Notes: generated from the letters alone by a model not told the origin. A stretch of 7,457 bases of DNA from a virus (IMGVR_UViG_2737471865_000004:1-7457), one strand, 5' to 3'; shown: positions 1-7,457, counted from the stretch's first letter. Made by a program: numbers and translations.

Positions 1-93
<93 letters not shown>

Positions 94-196
94 AAACTGG
101 GGATAACGCCTTAAATGGCGAAGAAACGGTCTAAATAGGCTGATTCAAGGCATTTACGGGAGAAAAAATCGGCTCAAACATGAAGAAATGAAATGA

Positions 197-3100
197 CTGA
201 GTCAGCCGAGAAGAATTTCCCCGCTTATTCGCACCTTCCCTAATAATACAACCATTAACGGAGGAAGACAGACAATTCATGACGGGGGCATTTCCACCGG
301 TACGATAATCGACAGTGGCAATCAGGACGTTTATACAGGTGGTATCAGCAATGGAACGACAATTAAGGGTGGTAATTCACACATAAGTGGGGGGACTGCG
401 AATGGAACCATCATTGATGGTGGAGGGCAGACAGTAACAACTCAGGGGCATGTTGATGGTACAACGATAAATAAGTCCGGTTATCAGGACATCACGCAAG
501 GAAGTATTGCAACGAACACAATCATAAATGGTGGACGACAGTATGTTGAACAGAGCACAGTAGGAACAACCACCATTAAAAATGGCGGTGAGCAAAGAGT
601 ATATGAAAGCCATGCGCTGGACACGACGATTGAAGGTGGAACTCAGTCTCTGAATAATAAGTCAACGGCAAAAAATACTCAGATCTATTCTGGTGGTACG
701 CAAATTGTTGATTACACCAGCTCCTCGGATGTTATTGAAGTTTATTCCGGTGGCGTGCTTGATGTTAGTGGTGGTACGGCAACAAATGTTACCCAGCACG
801 ATGGTGCAATTTTAAAAACAAACACTAACGGTACGACGGTGAGCGGTACGAATAGTGAAGGTGCATTCTCCATCCACAATCACGTGGCAGACAATGTGTT
901 GCTGGAAAACGGTGGTCATTTAGACATAAACGCATATGGTTCGGCAAACAAGACGATTATTAAAGATAAAGGAACAATGTCAGTTTTAACGAATGCTAAA
1001 GCTGATGCGACCCGAATAGATAACGGCGGGGTAATGGATGTTACCGGAAACGCGACCAATACCATAATCAATGGTGGTACACAGAATATTAATAATCATG
1101 GTATTGCCACGGGTACCAATATCAACGGCGGAACGCAAAATATCAAGAGCGGCGGGAAAGCTGACACGACAATTATATCCTCCGGGAGCCGGCAGGTTGT
1201 TGAGAAAGATGGTACGGCAACTGGCAGCAATATTAGCGCCGGAGGCTCGCTGATTGTCTATACCGGTGGTATTGCACATGGGGTTAACCAGGAGACGGGC
1301 AGTGCTTTAGTTGCCAACACGGGCGCAGGGACTGATATTGAAGGATACAACAAGCTCTCTCACTTCACTATTACCGGAGGGGAGGCTAATTATGTTGTGC
1401 TGGAAAATACCGGCGAACTGACGGTAGTGGCTAAAACCTCGGCGAAAAATACTACCGTTGATGCTGGCGGTAAGCTGATTGTCCAGAAGGAGGCTAAAAC
1501 AGATACCACCAGACTTAATAATGGTGGCGTTCTGGAGGTTCAGGACGGTGGTGAGGCTAAGCATGTTGAGCAACAATCCGGCGGCGCATTAATTGCTTCC
1601 ACAACTTCCGGAACCCTTATCGAAGGAATCAACAGTTATGGTGATGCTTTCTACATCAGGAATTCAGAAGCTAAAAATGTAGTGCTGGAAAACGCTGGCT
1701 CATTAACAGTCGTCACTGGTTCCCGGGCAGTTGATACGATTATTAATGCCAACGGCAAAATGGATGTTTATGGAAAAGATGTTGGCACTGTACTCAATAG
1801 TGCTGGCACCCAAACAATATATGCCAGTGCCACTTCTGATAAAGCAAATATCAAAGGTGGCAAGCAAACGGTATATGGATTAGCCACTGAGGCAAATATC
1901 GAAAGTGGTGAACAAATTGTTGATGGTGGGTCAACAGAGAAAACACACATCAATGGTGGCACGCAAACCGTTCAGAATTATGGTAAGGCAATCAATACCG
2001 ATATCGTCTCTGGCCTACAACAAATTATGGCAAACGGGACAGCGGAAGGTTCCATTATTAATGGGTGTTCACAGGTAGTTAATGAGGGCGGTCTGGCTGA
2101 AAACTCGGTGCTTAATGACGGCGGCACACTCGATGTGCGGGAGAAAGGCAGCGCAACGGGGATACAGCAGAGTAGCCAGGACGCTTTGGTTGCAACCACC
2201 AGGGCGACGCGGGTCACAGGAACACGCGCGGATGGCGTCGCGTTCAGCATCGAGCAGGGTGCGGCGAACAATATCCTGCTGGCAAATGGCGGCGTGTTAA
2301 CCATGGAGTCAGACACCTCTTCTGACAAAACACAGGTCAATACGGGCGGACGGGAGATCGTCAAAACAAAAGCCACTGCGACAGGCACGACGCTCACCGG
2401 CGGCGAACAAATCGTCGAGGGGGTGGCGAATGAGACAACGATTAACGACGGCGGAATACAAACAGTTTCAGCTAACGGAGAGGCAATAAAAACAAAGATC
2501 AATGAAGGCGGTACGCTGACAGTTAACGATAATGGCAAAGCGACAGATATCGTCCAGAACAGCGGTGCCGCTCTCCAGACGAGCACGGCTAACGGTATTG
2601 AAATCAGCGGTACTCACCAGTACGGCACTTTTTCCATTTCCGGCAATTTAGCGACCAATATGTTGCTGGAAAATGGCGGTAATTTATTGGTATTAGCAGG
2701 TACCGAAGCTCGCGACTCCACGGTTGGCAGCGGTGGAGCCGCCAACGGCAGTTATCGCAGCAACGGGCTGGGCGGTCACATTGAAACCGGGATGCGATTT
2801 ACCGATGGTAACTGGAACCTGACGCCGTATGCATCGTTAACGGGGGTTCACCGCTGATAACCCTGAATATCATTTATCCAATGGCATGGAATCGAAATCA
2901 GTCGATACCCGCAGTTTATATCGTGAACTGGGTGCAACGCTGAGTTACAACATGCGTCTGGGGAACGGTATGGAAGTTGAGCCGTGGCTGAAGGCGGCTG
3001 TGCGCAAAGAATTTGTCGATGATAACCGGGTGAAAGTGAATAGTGACGGTAATTTCGTCAATGATTTGTCGGGCAGACGTGGAATATACCAGGCAGGTAT

Positions 3101-3212
3101 TAAAGCCTCATTCAGCAGTACGTTAAGCGGGCATCTTGGGGTGGGGTATAGCCATGGTGCCGGTGTGGAATCCCCGTGGAACGGGGTAGCTGGTGTGAAC
3201 TGGTCGTTCTGA
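197..3212 (+). pseudogene. ypjA: Type Va (AIDA-I/Ag43-like) autotransporter adhesin remnant, ypjA-like; 5'-truncated and frameshifted
   Basis: One frame is open from 197 (just after an in-frame TGA at 194-196) to TGA at 2855-2857, with no in-frame ATG or signal peptide; the track ORF 755-2857 begins at an internal GTG. Translation is Gly/Thr/Asn-rich with recurring ...T-I-I-N-G-G-T-Q... units typical of AIDA-type passenger repeats. ORF 2886-3212 in another frame ends ...GVNWSF, a typical beta-barrel C-terminus; that frame is open back to 2841, so the frame switch lies at about 2841-2857. Symbol is by synteny only: an autotransporter 3' end ~160 bp from the ssrA-derived att core, as I recall for ypjA next to CP4-57 in E. 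coli K-12. Confidence 0.75.
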
Positions 3213-3221
3213 CCATCAACG

Positions 3222-3245
3222 AAAAAGCCCACATCTGTGGGCTTT
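3222..3245. terminator. Bidirectional intrinsic terminator hairpin (AAAAA-GCCCAC-ATCT-GTGGGC-TTT)
   Basis: Perfect 6-bp GC-rich stem 3227-3232 / 3237-3242 with a 4-nt loop, A5 tract upstream and T3 downstream on the plus strand; on the minus strand the same hairpin is followed by TTTTT. It lies 10 bp after the autotransporter stop and ~130 bp downstream (minus-strand sense) of the ssrA 3' end. Confidence 0.5.
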
Positions 3246-3372
3246 CATGTCACCAGGAGCCGCGGCTCCTTTGCGTATCCTTTTATGTCTCTTCACCGTC
3301 TGGTCGGTGTCCTGCTGAGACTGCTAACTTCCTGTTTTTATTGGTGTTGTCCTTATACCGTCCAATCATGAT

Positions 3373-3417
3373 TGGTGGAGCTGGCGGGAGTTGAACCCGC
3401 GTCCGAAATTCCTACAT
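3373..3417 (-). other. ssrA: 3'-terminal ~45 nt of ssrA (tmRNA) including the CCA end: prophage attachment-site core at the prophage/chromosome junction
   Basis: Minus strand reads ...ATGTAGGAATTTCGGACGCGGGTTCAACTCCCGCCAGCTCCACCA, which matches the 3' end of E. coli tmRNA as I recall it. The match stops at 3417/3418 and nothing upstream resembles the rest of ssrA, so this is a fragment or att core, not a gene. Confidence 0.7.
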
Positions 3418-3533
3418 ACCATTTTGACTATAATAAAAACATATATTTATGTTTTAAAACAGTACGTTAGTGTTATTTTGTTTTTGTCGGTTTTACACAT
3501 TTTTAATGCTCTGCCGCCAAGTTGTCGCCATTG

Positions 3534-4517
3534 CTAATTCCTATCAGCAGGTAGAATTGCTGGGTAGAGCTTAGAGCAATCATTGCCATAGTCAGGGATA
3601 AAGTCCCATAGCCCTTTTGGCGTTTGGAAGACCTCAGGGCTTAAGCCAATCAGCATATAAACATGAACTAACAGCTCGCGCAATCCAGTGACCATTTGCT
3701 TTATTTGTTTTTCATCAGAGAAAGAAGTGGTGAAGGGTTTTTCTTCAATGGAGTCAAAAAGAATAAACTCATGTTTTTCATATCGATAGTCGATCCCTAA
3801 TTCTCTGCAAAGTTGGATAATATTGATTTCGAGCATTTGAAGGGAAATCACTTGGATATCATAAGAAGTCTCTTTGTTGTAACAGCTTTTAATAGCTTTG
3901 TTGATATTCTTATAATAATCTTGAACTCTACCCATAAATAATGAACTTATTTCTTTGCTATAGCCTTCTTCAATAGAGGATTTTGTAAAAATATTCATGT
4001 AAAGAATATAAGGGTGAGAAATGGAAAGTTCTATATATTTTTTTCCATCATCGTGTTCGGTAAACTCTCTACTAACGATAAATGAAGGGACGGTTTTAAA
4101 AATATCGGCATAACTCTTCTGGTGGGCATAAAATGAATCAGATTTATTTTTTGCTTTTACCAGCTCTATTTGATGCTCTGTCCTTGAAAGCTGCGTCTCT
4201 GTTTGAATGGTCCTGTGAATATTCTTAACTATAGCTCCAAGAGGTACTGAACTGGCTAGCAGCATTAGAGGGAATTTACTGATTTCGTAAAAGCGAGTAT
4301 AGCCGTGGGCACTTAACACCGGGACCTTGCCCCACCATGCGAAAATCCCAAAATAAAAGAATGATAATACTGGTATTCCGATTGATAACCAGAATAATTT
4401 CTGTTTTATAAGGTTTTGTTCATTTAATAAATACCACTTGTATTTATATGTTAAATACAATATGTATATTAACATTACAACATAGAACATAATGCCAATT
4501 GATGAATAGAGGGTCAT
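3534..4517 (-). CDS. Hypothetical membrane-anchored protein, 327 aa (two N-terminal hydrophobic helices plus ~265-aa C-terminal domain); AT-rich prophage cargo gene of unknown function
   Basis: Uninterrupted 327-codon ORF. Its ATG (4517-4515) overlaps the int stop codon (ATGA overlap). Hydrophobic segments at roughly residues 7-24 and 41-62. Hand-counted GC of sampled 60-nt stretches is ~23-28% versus ~48% in int. No catalytic motif I can recognise. Confidence 0.7.
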   Translation of the reverse strand: MTLYSSIGIMFYVVMLIYILYLTYKYKWYLLNEQNLIKQKLFWLSIGIPVLSFFYFGIFAWWGKVPVLSAHGYTRFYEISKFPLMLLASSVPLGAIVKNIHRTIQTETQLSRTEHQIELVKAKNKSDSFYAHQKSYADIFKTVPSFIVSREFTEHDDGKKYIELSISHPYILYMNIFTKSSIEEGYSKEISSLFMGRVQDYYKNINKAIKSCYNKETSYDIQVISLQMLEINIIQLCRELGIDYRYEKHEFILFDSIEEKPFTTSFSDEKQIKQMVTGLRELLVHVYMLIGLSPEVFQTPKGLWDFIPDYGNDCSKLYPAILPADRN

Positions 4518-5541
4518 GCTTTTTTCCAGTCTAATTTGTAAAGTGGATTTTTTGTTACAGCATCTTCCAAGTGATCAGGGGCAAAGTGAGCGTAAACCAT
4601 CGTCATTTTTATATCAGCATGGCCCAGAATATCGCGCAGTACCAGTATATTTCCGCCGTTCATCATAAAATGGCTGGCGAATGTATGGCGCAGTACGTGG
4701 GTGCACTGGCCCTCTGGCAGTTCGATACCGGCTCGCTTTACTGCACGCTCAAAGGATTTTCTGCATGGGGTAAATAATCTCCCCCTGTTTTTAGGTAGTT
4801 CGTCATACAGTTCTTGAGATATTGGAACGGTTCGGTTTTTTTTACCTTTGGTCTTGGTATAAGTAATGCGATATTTTGATAACTGATGCCCTTGCAGGTT
4901 TTCTGCTTCACTCCATCGGGCACCAGTTGCTAGGCATATTTTTGCAATCATCAACAGACTGGGACTCTGAGAATCAGCACAGGCATCCAGTAGGCGTTTA
5001 ATTTCTTCCGGGGTCAGGAATGCTAGTTCACCCTCAGCGATTTTAAATGTTGGCAGCCCGACGAGAGGATTTGGTGCTGACCAGTGGCCTAGTTTTTTCA
5101 ATGTGCCGAAAACCGATGATAGGTACGTTGCTCAAGATTCACCGTGCGTGGTTTTACTGGCGACATTAGTGTGCCGTCTTCGTTACGAAGGTCACCTTTT
5201 AACCGTGCTTCGCGGTATTTCGTAAAGTCTCCGGCTGTCAGTTCTGAGGCGATGGGGTCGCCTAGACCATTACAGATAATTCTAAGTTTCGCCATGAGGC
5301 GCTTGGGGTCTGCGAGTGTCTGACCATACAGGGAATACCAAAGCTCAATTAACTCTGATAGGCGTCGCCGATCATCCTTTTCACCCAACCACGGTTTTTT
5401 ATTCACTTCTTCCATTGTGAAGCTTTCAAACGCAATGGCTTCGCCTTTCGTGGCAAATTGCTTACGCACGCGCTTGCCATTGCGTCCATTGGGATAGCAC
5501 TCACACAACCATTTTCCGTTCGGCTGTTTTCTGATGGTCAT
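4514..5541 (-). pseudogene. int: Tyrosine recombinase / integrase of the P2/186 family, split by a frameshift (N-terminal part 5098-5541, C-terminal part 4514-5101)
   Basis: N-terminal ORF begins MTIRKQPNGKWLCECYPNGRNGKRVRKQF... and C-terminal ORF carries ...LATGARWSEAE..., ...HVLRHTFASHFMMNGGNILVLRDILGHADIKMTMVYAHFAP..., which recall the P2 Int catalytic region. The C-terminal frame is open only from 5131 downward after a stop at 5132-5134, and homology resumes there (…ATYLSSVFGTLKKLGHW), so a single indel at about 5123-5135 separates the halves. Combined length ~340 aa. Confidence 0.85.
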
Positions 5542-5542
5542 A

Positions 5543-6175
5543 TCAAAGGCTCTTAATGATTTTCAGTGCGCGGCCTACTACCTCAATGTCATCCAGGCCG
5601 CACTCAAACGATGAATCATCCTGATGCACTACTAATTTGTTTCCCGGGAGTCGAGTCAATTTAACAATGCTTTTTATCCCGTCGATATCGACTAACCACA
5701 TACCATTTACTAGTGGTGTTTGGTTGCGATCTATTAAATAAGAATCACCAGAAGTAGTCACCAGCAGTAGGTTGCTTGAGTTTGAGGGGAGTATGCTGCT
5801 ATCAATGATTGCTTTTCCAGCATCGATCAATAAACCACCGTTGAGAGTCGCCTTGTCAATTTCAGGAGATACTAGTTCAGAAAGAGGTATAACCTTGCTG
5901 GAGTTCACGGAATTGATATTTTTTTTGGGTTCAATGTTTGAACCTGGCTCCCCCTGTCCGGTGGTTAGCCACAGTAAAGAAACTCCTGTTTCCAAGGCGC
6001 ACTGAATCACCCACTCTGCAGGAAAACTATCTCTTAAGTATCTGTTTGCCATGGTACTTTTTGATGCGCCTAAGTGATCGCAAAGTTGCTGTCTGGACTT
6101 GAAATCATAGGCTGCCATTAGTCTATGGATAGCCTCTCTTCCCCCTGTATTCTCTCCAGCCTTTACCTGTATCAT
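5543..6175 (-). CDS. cI: CI-type lysogeny repressor (N-terminal HTH domain); occupies the 186 cI / P2 C position immediately upstream of int
   Basis: 210-codon ORF whose stop lies 1 nt before the int start, implying a cI-int operon. N-terminal region (...SRQQLCDHLGASKSTMANRYLRD...) looks like an HTH. AGGA sits about 6 nt upstream of the first ATG; an internal Met 19 codons in would give 191 aa. Confidence 0.65.
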   Translation of the reverse strand: MIQVKAGENTGGREAIHRLMAAYDFKSRQQLCDHLGASKSTMANRYLRDSFPAEWVIQCALETGVSLLWLTTGQGEPGSNIEPKKNINSVNSSKVIPLSELVSPEIDKATLNGGLLIDAGKAIIDSSILPSNSSNLLLVTTSGDSYLIDRNQTPLVNGMWLVDIDGIKSIVKLTRLPGNKLVVHQDDSSFECGLDDIEVVGRALKIIKSL

Positions 6176-6192
6176 TTTTTAATCCTGTTGGC

Positions 6193-6239
6193 GTATCAAA
6201 TATTGGATCGTAGTATCTCGATGTATCAAATATTGAATC
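6193..6239. promoter_or_regulatory. Two direct copies of a 17-bp operator-like element (GTATCAAATATTGGATC / GTATCAAATATTGAATC) in the repressor-Cox/Apl intergenic switch region
   Basis: Copies at 6193-6209 and 6223-6239 are 16/17 identical with starts 30 bp apart; each contains the palindromic core AATATT, and a third GTATC half-site sits at 6213-6217. They lie between divergent regulatory genes where operators are expected. Promoter -35/-10 elements could not be assigned with confidence. Confidence 0.35.
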
Positions 6240-6294
6240 AAGTAAAACGAGATAAAACGACGTAAACCAAACCTTAATCGGGAGATACTGCACT

Positions 6295-6537
6295 ATGAGC
6301 ACTGATATTTCAATTCGTGTACCAAAAGAGATGGCTACGCCTGCAGAGTTCGCGGAATGGGAAGGTATCTCCCGCGGCTCCGTGTATCAAAAAATTCACC
6401 ATGGTCAGCTTGCTAAATACATGGTCAAGAAAGAAAAAAACAAAGGCCGCGTAAGCCTGCGTTATTTAATGTACAAAACCGATCAGGTCCGTGAATCCCT
6501 CGGTCATTCCAACTTCCGCGTCATTGTTGGTAAGTAA
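6295..6537 (+). CDS. Small HTH regulator, Cox/Apl-like (excisionase / lytic-switch protein), 80 aa
   Basis: First rightward gene of the switch, in the same position as 186 apl / P2 cox. The segment ...TPAEFAEWEGISRGSVYQKIHHGQL... resembles the HTH region of P2 Cox as I recall it. Confidence 0.5.
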   Translation: MSTDISIRVPKEMATPAEFAEWEGISRGSVYQKIHHGQLAKYMVKKEKNKGRVSLRYLMYKTDQVRESLGHSNFRVIVGK

Positions 6538-6569
6538 GTTCAATTATGAGAACTTTCTAAGGGGGTAGC

Positions 6570-7079
6570 ATGTTTGATTATAAGATTTCCAAACACCCGC
6601 ATTTTGATGAAGCCTGTAGAGCTTTTGCACTTCGTCACAATATGGCGAAGCTGGCAGAACGTGCAGGAATGAATGTCCAGACTTTGCGAAACAAACTCAA
6701 CCCAGATCAACCGCATCAGCTAAATGCGCCAGAAATCTGGCTGCTTACCGATCTGACTGAAGATTCAACGCTGATAGATGGTTTTCTGGCACAGATTCAC
6801 TGCCTGCCATGTGTACCGATTAATGAGGTAGCAAAAGAGAAACTGCCGCATTACGTCATGAGTGCAACCGCAGAGATCGGGCGTGTTGCTGCAGGTGCGG
6901 TATCTGGAGATGTAAAAACCAGTGCAGGTCGTCGTGATGCTATCAGCAGCATTAACTCTGTAACACGACTGATGGCGCTGGCTGCTGTTTCATTGCAGGC
7001 CCGTTTACAGGCTAACCCTGCGATGGTGAGTGCAGTTGATACCGTGACTGGCCTCGGTGCTTCATTCGGTTTGCTGTGA
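6570..7079 (+). CDS. cII: CII-like lysogeny-establishment transcriptional activator (phage 186 CII family), 169 aa
   Basis: Strong RBS AAGGGGG about 4 nt before the ATG. Same position (second rightward gene) and same length as 186 CII as I recall; N-terminal HTH-like segment ...NMAKLAERAGMNVQTLRNKLNP... Confidence 0.65.
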   Translation: MFDYKISKHPHFDEACRAFALRHNMAKLAERAGMNVQTLRNKLNPDQPHQLNAPEIWLLTDLTEDSTLIDGFLAQIHCLPCVPINEVAKEKLPHYVMSATAEIGRVAAGAVSGDVKTSAGRRDAISSINSVTRLMALAAVSLQARLQANPAMVSAVDTVTGLGASFGLL

Positions 7080-7086
7080 GGTGCTT

Positions 7087-7383
7087 ATGCTGAAGAAAGA
7101 ACCATCATTTGCATCGCTGCTGGTAAAACAAAGCCCGGCAATGCACTACGGTCACGGCTGGATCATGGGTGAGGATGGGAAACGCTGGCATCCATGTCAT
7201 TCACAAGATGAATTGCTGTCTGAATTGACCACGAGGAAACGGAGAAAGTCAAAATGTATGCAGCGGAAAGTGAAGTGGTTTATCAGTTTCGTTACAGAGG
7301 GGAGAGTTATTCAGTACCTGAAGATGATTTGCTCTGTTGTTATCCGTCGTTGTCGGGCGATGGCAGTTACTTTTTCACGCTAA
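7087..7383 (+). CDS. Hypothetical phage early protein (position of 186 fil/dhr-type genes); start assigned to the ATG at 7087 rather than the track start at 7057
   Basis: GAGG lies 5 nt upstream of the ATG at 7087. The C-terminal third of the translation is unusually Cys/Arg-rich, so the true extent is uncertain (see findings). Confidence 0.3.
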   Translation: MLKKEPSFASLLVKQSPAMHYGHGWIMGEDGKRWHPCHSQDELLSELTTRKRRKSKCMQRKVKWFISFVTEGRVIQYLKMICSVVIRRCRAMAVTFSR

Positions 7384-7457
7384 GGAAGGTGCGAACAAGT
7401 CCCTGATATGAGATCATGTTTGTCATCTGGAGCCATGGAACAGGGTTCATCATGAGT

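Follow-up and report, generated by a model that had tools for sequence, protein, structure and literature searches.

What is the long open reading frame near the start of the 7,457-nt stretch of DNA analysed here (the window), and can it still give rise to an adhesin? A sequence-only reading had taken it for an autotransporter adhesin in an advanced state of decay. Our results show that window 240-3212 is E. coli ypjA/ehaD, a type Va, AIDA-I-type autotransporter gene, with 95.9% identity to K-12 ypjA. It is almost certainly a non-functional remnant of the chromosomal gene (ehaD in EHEC), killed by three independent lesions: an IS5 insertion, an internal deletion and a frameshift.

The open frame spans 886 codons in frame 2 (197-2857; ORF list and three-frame translations) and is preceded by a TGA at 194-196, in agreement with the roughly 885 codons and the in-frame upstream stop first described. 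By our own arithmetic, the chance of a stop-free frame of this length is (61/64)^886, roughly 1e-19. The earliest ATG, GTG or TTG within it is the GTG at 755, from which an ORF of 700 aa can be read.

The gene was identified by alignment to K-12 MG1655. From nt 290 onwards, ypjA (b2647) aligns by blastn without gaps to window 240-2739; 103 of the 2,500 nt are mismatched (95.9% identity), the final 10 bases, 2730-2739, lying past the deletion junction described below. The protein identity of the passenger to K-12 YpjA is 95.2% over codons 97-926. A second block, window 2727-3387, corresponds to the final 485 nt of ypjA together with the sequence that follows the gene, as far as the CP4-57/psaA boundary. 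A megablast search of 5,426 complete E. coli genomes, the set used for all population counts, returned features matching 240 onward that PGAP names 'ypjA: adhesin-like autotransporter YpjA/EhaD' and nearly always labels as pseudogenes; the annotated neighbours were 'site-specific integrase | phage repressor protein CI | CII'. Nucleotide identity, collinearity with b2647 and a position beside ssrA place the locus in the ypjA/ehaD orthologue group, so that the suspected kinship with YpjA and the AIDA family was correct. K-12 YpjA and EHEC O157:H7 EhaD are its orthologues, with which it shares five AIDA modules, the stop codon, the putative terminator and the site beside ssrA. The alignment to intact YpjA that had been proposed for mapping missing segments shows that, unlike the K-12 gene, the window copy lacks codons 1-96 (through IS5) and 927-1366 (through the deletion) and carries a +1 frameshift; it is hence a pseudogene.

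What remains of the passenger consists of the following features:

240-2729, plus strand: ypjA/ehaD passenger remnant, equivalent to K-12 ypjA nt 290-2779 (codons 97-926), frame 2, stop-free.
842-1030, plus strand: AIDA module 1 with AFSIHNHVADNVLLENGGHL (PF16168, 63 aa; core at 899-922).
1340-1528, plus strand: AIDA module 2 with HFTITGGEANYVVLENTGEL (PF16168; core at 1397-1420; end extrapolated to 63 aa).
1622-1807, plus strand: AIDA module 3 with AFYIRNSEAKNVVLENAGSL (PF16168; core at 1682-1705).
2216-2404, plus strand: AIDA module 4 with AFSIEQGAANNILLANGGVL (PF16168; core at 2276-2299).
2606-2728, plus strand: AIDA module 5 with TFSISGNLATNMLLENGGNL (PF16168; core at 2663-2686), ending at the deletion junction.

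The long frame is rich in NGG/TxI repeats of the beta-helix type. Pfam finds PF16168 (AIDA) in eight stretches of it (E=2.5e-140), and TIGR04415, which describes the 19-residue strand-loop-strand repeat found in adhesins of AIDA-I type, matches the passenger in nine (E=3e-73). The passenger is thus of the beta-helical kind and carries AIDA-type repeats. The five larger modules that had been placed at codons 38, 208, 300, 495 and 632 were recovered at codons ~38, 204, 299, 497 and 626 of the ORF starting at 755, and all of them are PF16168. Their cores read [LV]L[EA]N[GTA]GxL, with F-[STY]-I about 11 codons upstream of each. All five match the profile from its position 1 (whole-segment E-values from 6e-20 to 5e-31), three of them over its full length (1-63) and two up to positions 39-40, where the boundaries of the tested segments (1456 and 2728) cut them. 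Module 5 thus reaches about 40 of the 63 profile positions before the deletion junction, 2728 being also the end of the segment tested. The same five modules are present in K-12, and so are the short TIGR04415 repeats.

These repeats are old. Protein identity between modules is 32-50% and DNA identity 46-58%, and a recent tandem duplication was rejected as their origin, Tandem Repeats Finder returning 0 rows; the longest direct DNA repeats measure 54-57 nt and are 60-70% identical. At a smaller scale, the two NGGTQNI copies (AATGGTGGTACACAGAATATT at 1070-1090 and AACGGCGGAACGCAAAATATC at 1124-1144) differ at 7 of 21 bases, all synonymous. They had indeed been described as differently encoded, although at coordinates that were off by 1 and 4 nt. 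The repeat architecture is of long standing, as the same reading held; it is usual for AIDA-type proteins and has nothing to do with decay. Over the passenger, dN/dS against K-12 is 0.26; this value bears the mark of purifying selection that acted before the gene was inactivated, and has no bearing on its present state.

The beginning of the frame is explained by an insertion sequence, of which the window holds one end:

1-239, plus strand: 3' end of IS5, comprising the last 31 insH transposase codons (1-93) and the 16-bp terminal inverted repeat.
224-239, plus strand: IS5 terminal inverted repeat CTTATTCGCACCTTCC, 16 bp, abutting CTAA.
240-243, plus strand: IS5 target site CTAA, which is native ypjA nt 290-293.

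The window begins inside IS5, and its positions 1-258 are 98-99.6% identical to IS5 3' ends in more than 2,700 E. coli genomes. IS5 (IS5 family, IS5 group) is defined by a 16-bp terminal inverted repeat, an insH transposase and a 4-bp YTAR target; the window has the inverted repeat, the C-terminus of insH and, on the ypjA side, CTAA. At this site K-12 reads GGGCAGG-CTAA-TAATACAACC. All sequence 5' of ypjA nt 290, where the gene sequence now starts, has been replaced by IS5, and with it have gone the start codon and the first 96 codons, including the N-terminal Sec signal peptide MNRTSPYYCRRSVLSLLISALIYAPPGMA. The missing start, the missing signal peptide and the in-frame stop upstream are thus all due to the insertion-sequence boundary. 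Their absence had been observed correctly, but the frame start at 197 had been ascribed to the gene and sits 43 nt inside IS5, to which 197-239 belong.

An equivalent insertion exists in E. coli ET625, where a 1,195-bp IS5 (L004 8045-9239) occupies the same ypjA CTAA. The window IS5 is collinear with it, and the ET625 transposase CDS (L004 8113-9093) ends at the equivalent of window 93. CTAA flanks this IS5 on either side, and the 5' 293 nt of ypjA (MNRTSPYY...PGMAAF) lie directly upstream. Should these 293 nt also be present beyond the window IS5, where an intact N-terminus was to be sought, a 1,195-bp IS5 would still stand between them and the remainder of the gene. ET625 is the only one of the 5,426 genomes with an IS5::ypjA junction, and it has it on a different allele: its ypjA is full-length, with a flank only ~92% identical to the window. 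We therefore read the two insertions as independent. That two different alleles were struck at this CTAA (ypjA nt 290-293) could point, though with low probability, to a recurrent hotspot for IS5. An exact-pattern scan for the junction found no occurrence among GTDB species representatives.

The other two lesions lie towards the 3' end of the gene:

2727-2729, plus strand: deletion junction, a GCA microhomology joining K-12 nt 2777-2779 to 4097-4099.
2730-3212, plus strand: C-terminal translocator remnant, K-12 residues 1367-1526, approximately the last half of the 12-strand barrel, in two frames.
2842-2846, plus strand: G5 run with the +1 frameshift (G4 in K-12).
2886-3212, plus strand: 108-aa ORF remaining in frame 3, the native frame of the C-terminus.
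3224-3245, plus strand: hairpin AAAGCCCAC-ATCT-GTGGGCTTT just 3' of the stop codon, read from the sequence.

The two K-12 alignment blocks overlap at the GCA of window 2727-2729. Missing between them are 1,320 nt, in frame, that is 440 codons encoding K-12 residues 927-1366. An internal deletion had been suspected, and it turns out to be larger than supposed. The Pfam architecture of K-12 YpjA comprises 13 AIDA matches along with Pertactin (residues 1057-1179), a Pro-rich linker (residues 1179-1240) and the beta-domain (residues 1265-1504). The deletion hence takes the final part of the passenger, all of the pertactin/autochaperone domain, the linker and, of the ~240 barrel residues, about the first 100. 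A Pfam check, suggested together with the alignment, found the AIDA repeat and part of the beta-domain in the window but no match to the pertactin-like autochaperone PF03212, whose K-12 region lies inside the deleted residues.

The remaining translocator sequence (2730-3212) is 97% identical to K-12 at the nucleotide level. It covers only profile positions 152-254 of 255 in PF03797 and 331-432 of 432 in TIGR01414. With its frame repaired, the 160-aa C-terminus covers no more of the 284-residue BrkA translocator (3qq2_A) than residues 126-284, and it also aligns to Vag8 724-876. A full-length beta-domain on alignment had been named, together with an intact N-terminus, as the observation that would speak against decay, and the match obtained is partial; the window holds no complete in-frame translocator, with linker helix, 12-strand barrel and full PF03797. 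The beta-domain of ~150 aa ending at 3212 was accordingly judged too short with good reason, but its C-terminal piece stands in another frame than the passenger, which that judgement had missed.

This change of frame occurs at the G5 run. As a consequence, the passenger frame terminates at TGA 2855-2857, followed by TAA 2858-2860, and the native ypjA stop (TGA 3210-3212) closes the separate 108-aa ORF. The same frameshift is found in strains SCU-106, FREC5, 47-1826, W2-5 and 118C_1, in which the downstream piece is annotated separately; the equivalent 327-nt ORF of other strains is WP_000444409.1, 'autotransporter outer membrane beta-barrel domain-containing protein'. A sequencing error was rejected, since other complete genomes, independent of the window, contain the G5 run as well. 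The hairpin at 3224-3245 is conserved in K-12 and is likely the ypjA terminator; a consensus terminator scan missed it.

Beyond the gene, the match to K-12 ends at the CP4-57/psaA boundary, and the rest of the window is the left end of a P2/186/Fels-2-like prophage. One feature marks the transition:

3373-3417, minus strand: duplicate of the 3' end of ssrA (tmRNA), the prophage att core, 100% identical to ssrA nt 319-363 (last 45 nt).

Rfam gives a partial tmRNA match at these positions (33 bits). Besides a 327-aa protein, the prophage genes encode an integrase split into two pieces, the CI repressor, a small regulator, CII and Fil. Compared with the intact 342-aa gene of SCU-106, the integrase has a 1-nt deletion near 5123; its 147-aa fragment, specific to the window, matches two Logan contigs (4.0 and 1.3 kb), neither of which reaches ypjA. 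The one mildly interesting by-product is the 327-aa protein, an uncharacterised membrane protein in the int-att slot of a P2-like prophage. It has no match in Pfam, PADLOC or NCBIfam, matches only a family of unknown function in PHROGs, and its AF2 model (pLDDT 83) has no fold match in the PDB. A second IS5 starts at 7384 (GGAAGGTGCGAACAAG), after CTAA and directly past the Fil stop codon, in the same orientation as the first. Both IS5 junctions of the window together occur in none of the 5,426 complete E. coli genomes.

How widespread are these lesions, and in which order did they arise? A 241-nt probe spanning the deletion junction matched ypjA in some form in 2,886 of the 5,426 genomes, and in 323 of them (~6%) the deletion junction itself was spanned. 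All five deletion alleles inspected carry the G5 frameshift and are called pseudogenes by PGAP. These alleles (W2-5, 118C_1_fosA3, 47-1826, SCU-106 and FREC5) have the same junction and the same G5 as the window and are at least 99.9% identical to it within the gene, over the sequence they share. Where the window has IS5 at 240, however, the 5' end is preserved in W2-5, 118C_1 and 47-1826. Between W2-5 and the window allele there are 2 mismatches in 3,178 nt, and W2-5 is stop-free over 930 PGAP-annotated codons, signal peptide included. Strain 47-1826 shows three differences in 240-3212, one of which is a nonsense codon of its own at 2021; in SCU-106 and FREC5 the gene is interrupted at window ~382 by an IS3-family element, rather than at 240 by IS5. 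A link between the deletion allele and the P2-like prophage was also considered and rejected, as W2-5 and 118C_1 carry deletion and G5 with ssrA directly downstream and no prophage.

Because strains with an intact 5' end share the deletion and the frameshift at this level of identity, these two lesions probably came first, the IS5, IS3 and nonsense mutations being later, lineage-specific events on an already dead gene. Illegitimate recombination at the GCA microhomology would have deleted the 1,320 nt, and a +1 slip in the G4 run would have produced G5. Together these would have removed the autochaperone, the linker/plug helix and ~5 barrel strands and broken the link between the passenger and the surviving part of the barrel. 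A later transposition of IS5 into the CTAA at nt 290-293 would then have cut the remainder of the gene off from its promoter, start codon and signal peptide. Any product of such a gene would be neither exported, nor inserted into the outer membrane, nor displayed.

Taken alone, the lack of any internal stop over 830 native codons could suggest maintenance. The passenger probably remains open because the lesions are recent, with near-zero divergence since inactivation, and not because it is maintained. As far as substitutions go, 'advanced decay' is too strong a term, since only 2 of 3,178 nt set the allele apart from strains whose 5' end is still in place. The allele is already known: it is a common pseudogene, recorded in RefSeq annotation, to which one unremarkable IS5 insertion has been added, and this insertion is the sole lesion particular to the window copy. 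A literature search on the ypjA pseudogene found no relevant report.

The functional consequences can be gauged from what type Va secretion demands: Sec export by a signal peptide, BAM-assisted assembly of a complete 12-strand barrel, threading through the linker, and passenger folding nucleated by the autochaperone. In intact YpjA, of 1,526 aa, a Sec signal peptide precedes a passenger whose beta-helix consists of 19-residue rungs and 63-residue AIDA modules; a pertactin-like autochaperone and a Pro-rich linker then lead to the 12-strand barrel. The protein promotes biofilm formation, belongs to autotransporter group 4 and is predicted to have a beta-helical passenger (PMC9289746; PMC12547504). 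In several characterised beta-helical autotransporters, the autochaperone is strictly required for secretion and folding (PMC5767081). Since these requirements are missing or halved in the window copy, which has no Sec export, linker threading or autochaperone and half a barrel, it would be inert.

Could the allele be doing something else? It might be a short but functional YpjA variant, in which the in-frame deletion is natural and the frameshift and truncation are artefacts of assembly or sequencing. The deletion is exactly 1,320 nt and thus in frame, the allele is common (323 genomes), and the passenger frame is open. Yet five complete genomes, each sequenced independently, share the G5 frameshift, the inverted repeat at the IS5 junction is clean and is followed by CTAA, PGAP flags every inspected copy as a pseudogene, and with autochaperone, linker and ~100 of ~240 barrel residues gone a 12-strand barrel cannot form, which leaves this explanation scarcely credible. 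Hardly any weight can be given either to expression of the remnant as a new, barrel-less protein kept for a new role. In the window such a protein would be made from an internal start, for example GTG 755, perhaps driven by IS5; in IS5-free strains it would be a periplasmic beta-helix of 960-odd aa with a signal peptide. IS5 is known to activate genes nearby, and the ORF of 700 aa from GTG 755 and the W2-5 frame, free of stops over 930 annotated codons with the signal peptide, are compatible with this. We found no evidence of a promoter or ribosome-binding site, however, a consensus scan yielding weak 9/12 sites only; the further strain-specific disruptions (IS3-family, IS5, nonsense) are as expected of neutral DNA, and beta-helical passengers generally need an autochaperone for folding (PMC5767081).

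The location of the frameshift in a homopolymeric G tract (2842-2846) also raises the idea of a phase-variation switch for the adhesin. A tract of four to five Gs is, however, too short for efficient slippage, restoration of the frame would still leave no autochaperone and half a barrel, and all inspected deletion alleles have G5; a switch is vanishingly improbable. It is very unlikely, too, that the allele persists as a useful exported barrel-less beta-helix fragment or as a reservoir of AIDA modules for recombination among adhesin genes. The evidence argues instead for a dead ypjA remnant, probably without expression.

The remnant belongs to a well-populated family. AIDA-I, Ag43/Cah and TibA, which are self-associating type Va proteins, share with it PF16168, TIGR04415 and the beta-helical passenger, and intact YpjA, like AIDA-I, Ag43 and TibA, also has a pertactin-type autochaperone and a PF03797 barrel. 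YpjA has been grouped with AIDA-I, Ag43/Cah and TibA in autotransporter group 4 (PMC9289746). Scores of 354 and 281 bits, far below the NCBIfam equivalog cut-off of 1,200, place the window gene as a paralogous family member and not as Ag43 or AIDA-I. Its fate has parallels elsewhere in the chromosome: E. coli K-12 ydbA, yaiT and yejO are large AIDA-type adhesin genes broken by insertion sequences, at other loci and other insertion points.

The importance of this finding is small. It offers a textbook case of how an adhesin gene of E. coli erodes through an inserted IS, a deletion at a microhomology and slippage in a homopolymer. It also bears on typing by presence or absence of ypjA/ehaD, as in 'adhesiome' and virulence-gene surveys, which would count the allele as present though no surface adhesin is possible; a passenger probe would give a false positive in 323 of 5,426 complete genomes.

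The ypjA remnant and the left end of the prophage together make up a 7.1-kb segment lying between two IS5 copies. The IS-related features are the following:

Window 1-239 and 7384-7457, a pair of directly oriented IS5 copies.
Window 240-243, and 8041-8044 and 9240-9243 of the ET625 locus, CTAA target in ypjA shared by IS5 insertions.
4753-5930 of the SCU-106 locus and 6152-7329 of the FREC5 locus, IS3-family insertions in ypjA, at about window position 382.

CTAA is found at both inner IS5 junctions, the outer flanks being outside the window. Collapsed IS5 repeats may bound the window on both sides, making it a complete contig from short-read assembly; alternatively, the IS5-bracketed segment is potentially a composite unit or a deletion substrate. 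ET625 has an IS5 inserted at the identical CTAA in ypjA, with the orientation that it has in the window. The two copies of the gene differ, however, as ET625 carries a full-length allele whose flank is about 92% identical to the window, whereas the window carries the deletion allele. Thus one tetranucleotide of ypjA has apparently been struck by IS5 repeatedly; an IS5 at this CTAA was present in only one of the 5,426 complete E. coli genomes searched.

Sister strains sharing the deletion allele carry further lesions. Besides the IS3-family insertions, which in SCU-106 are accompanied by loss of the ypjA 5′ end, a glutamine-to-stop change was observed in 47-1826, the nonsense codon corresponding to window position 2021. 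These further lesions are independent, showing that the dead gene is still eroding. Upstream of ypjA, its neighbours in the interval from the tRNA-Ile gene ileY to ssrA (ypjCB and part of a recombinase gene, pinH; loci of SCU-106, FREC5, 47-1826, W2-5 and 118C_1) are also annotated as pseudogenes in all strains inspected, and in two of them, 47-1826 and W2-5, an IS is inserted among these neighbours. The whole ileY-ssrA islet looks like an old integrated element in decay.

On the prophage side, three features were delimited, all on the minus strand of the window:

3373-3417, perfect 45-nt copy of the ssrA (tmRNA) 3′ end, marking the prophage end.
3534-4517, predicted membrane protein of 327 aa, of low GC content (33-36%).
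4514-5541, prophage tyrosine integrase, split by an indel near 5123.

An Rfam tmRNA match at 3373-3548 is stretched and sub-threshold, its real content being only the 45-nt ssrA fragment. Compared with SCU-106, in which the 342-aa gene is intact, the integrase has lost 1 nt and is thereby broken into ORFs of 147 and 195 aa. Excision of the prophage is probably no longer possible. The frameshifted fragment is also present on two short Logan contigs.

The 327-aa ORF is flanked by the integrase and the ssrA att core, and hence occupies the int-att slot, a minor defence hotspot in P2-like phages (PMC13586616). In other strains this slot holds an anti-phage dCTP deaminase, GapS1 or an HNH endonuclease. 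The protein had no match in Pfam, PADLOC or NCBIfam, and its PHROGs match, phrog_17460, is of unknown function. Its 64 homologues are all named 'hypothetical protein' at source, come from enterobacteria wherever the organism is named, and share an invariant IHRTIQTE motif. A fold search against the PDB with its AF2 model (pLDDT 83) returned no match. The ORF is a candidate uncharacterised gene for defence or exclusion.
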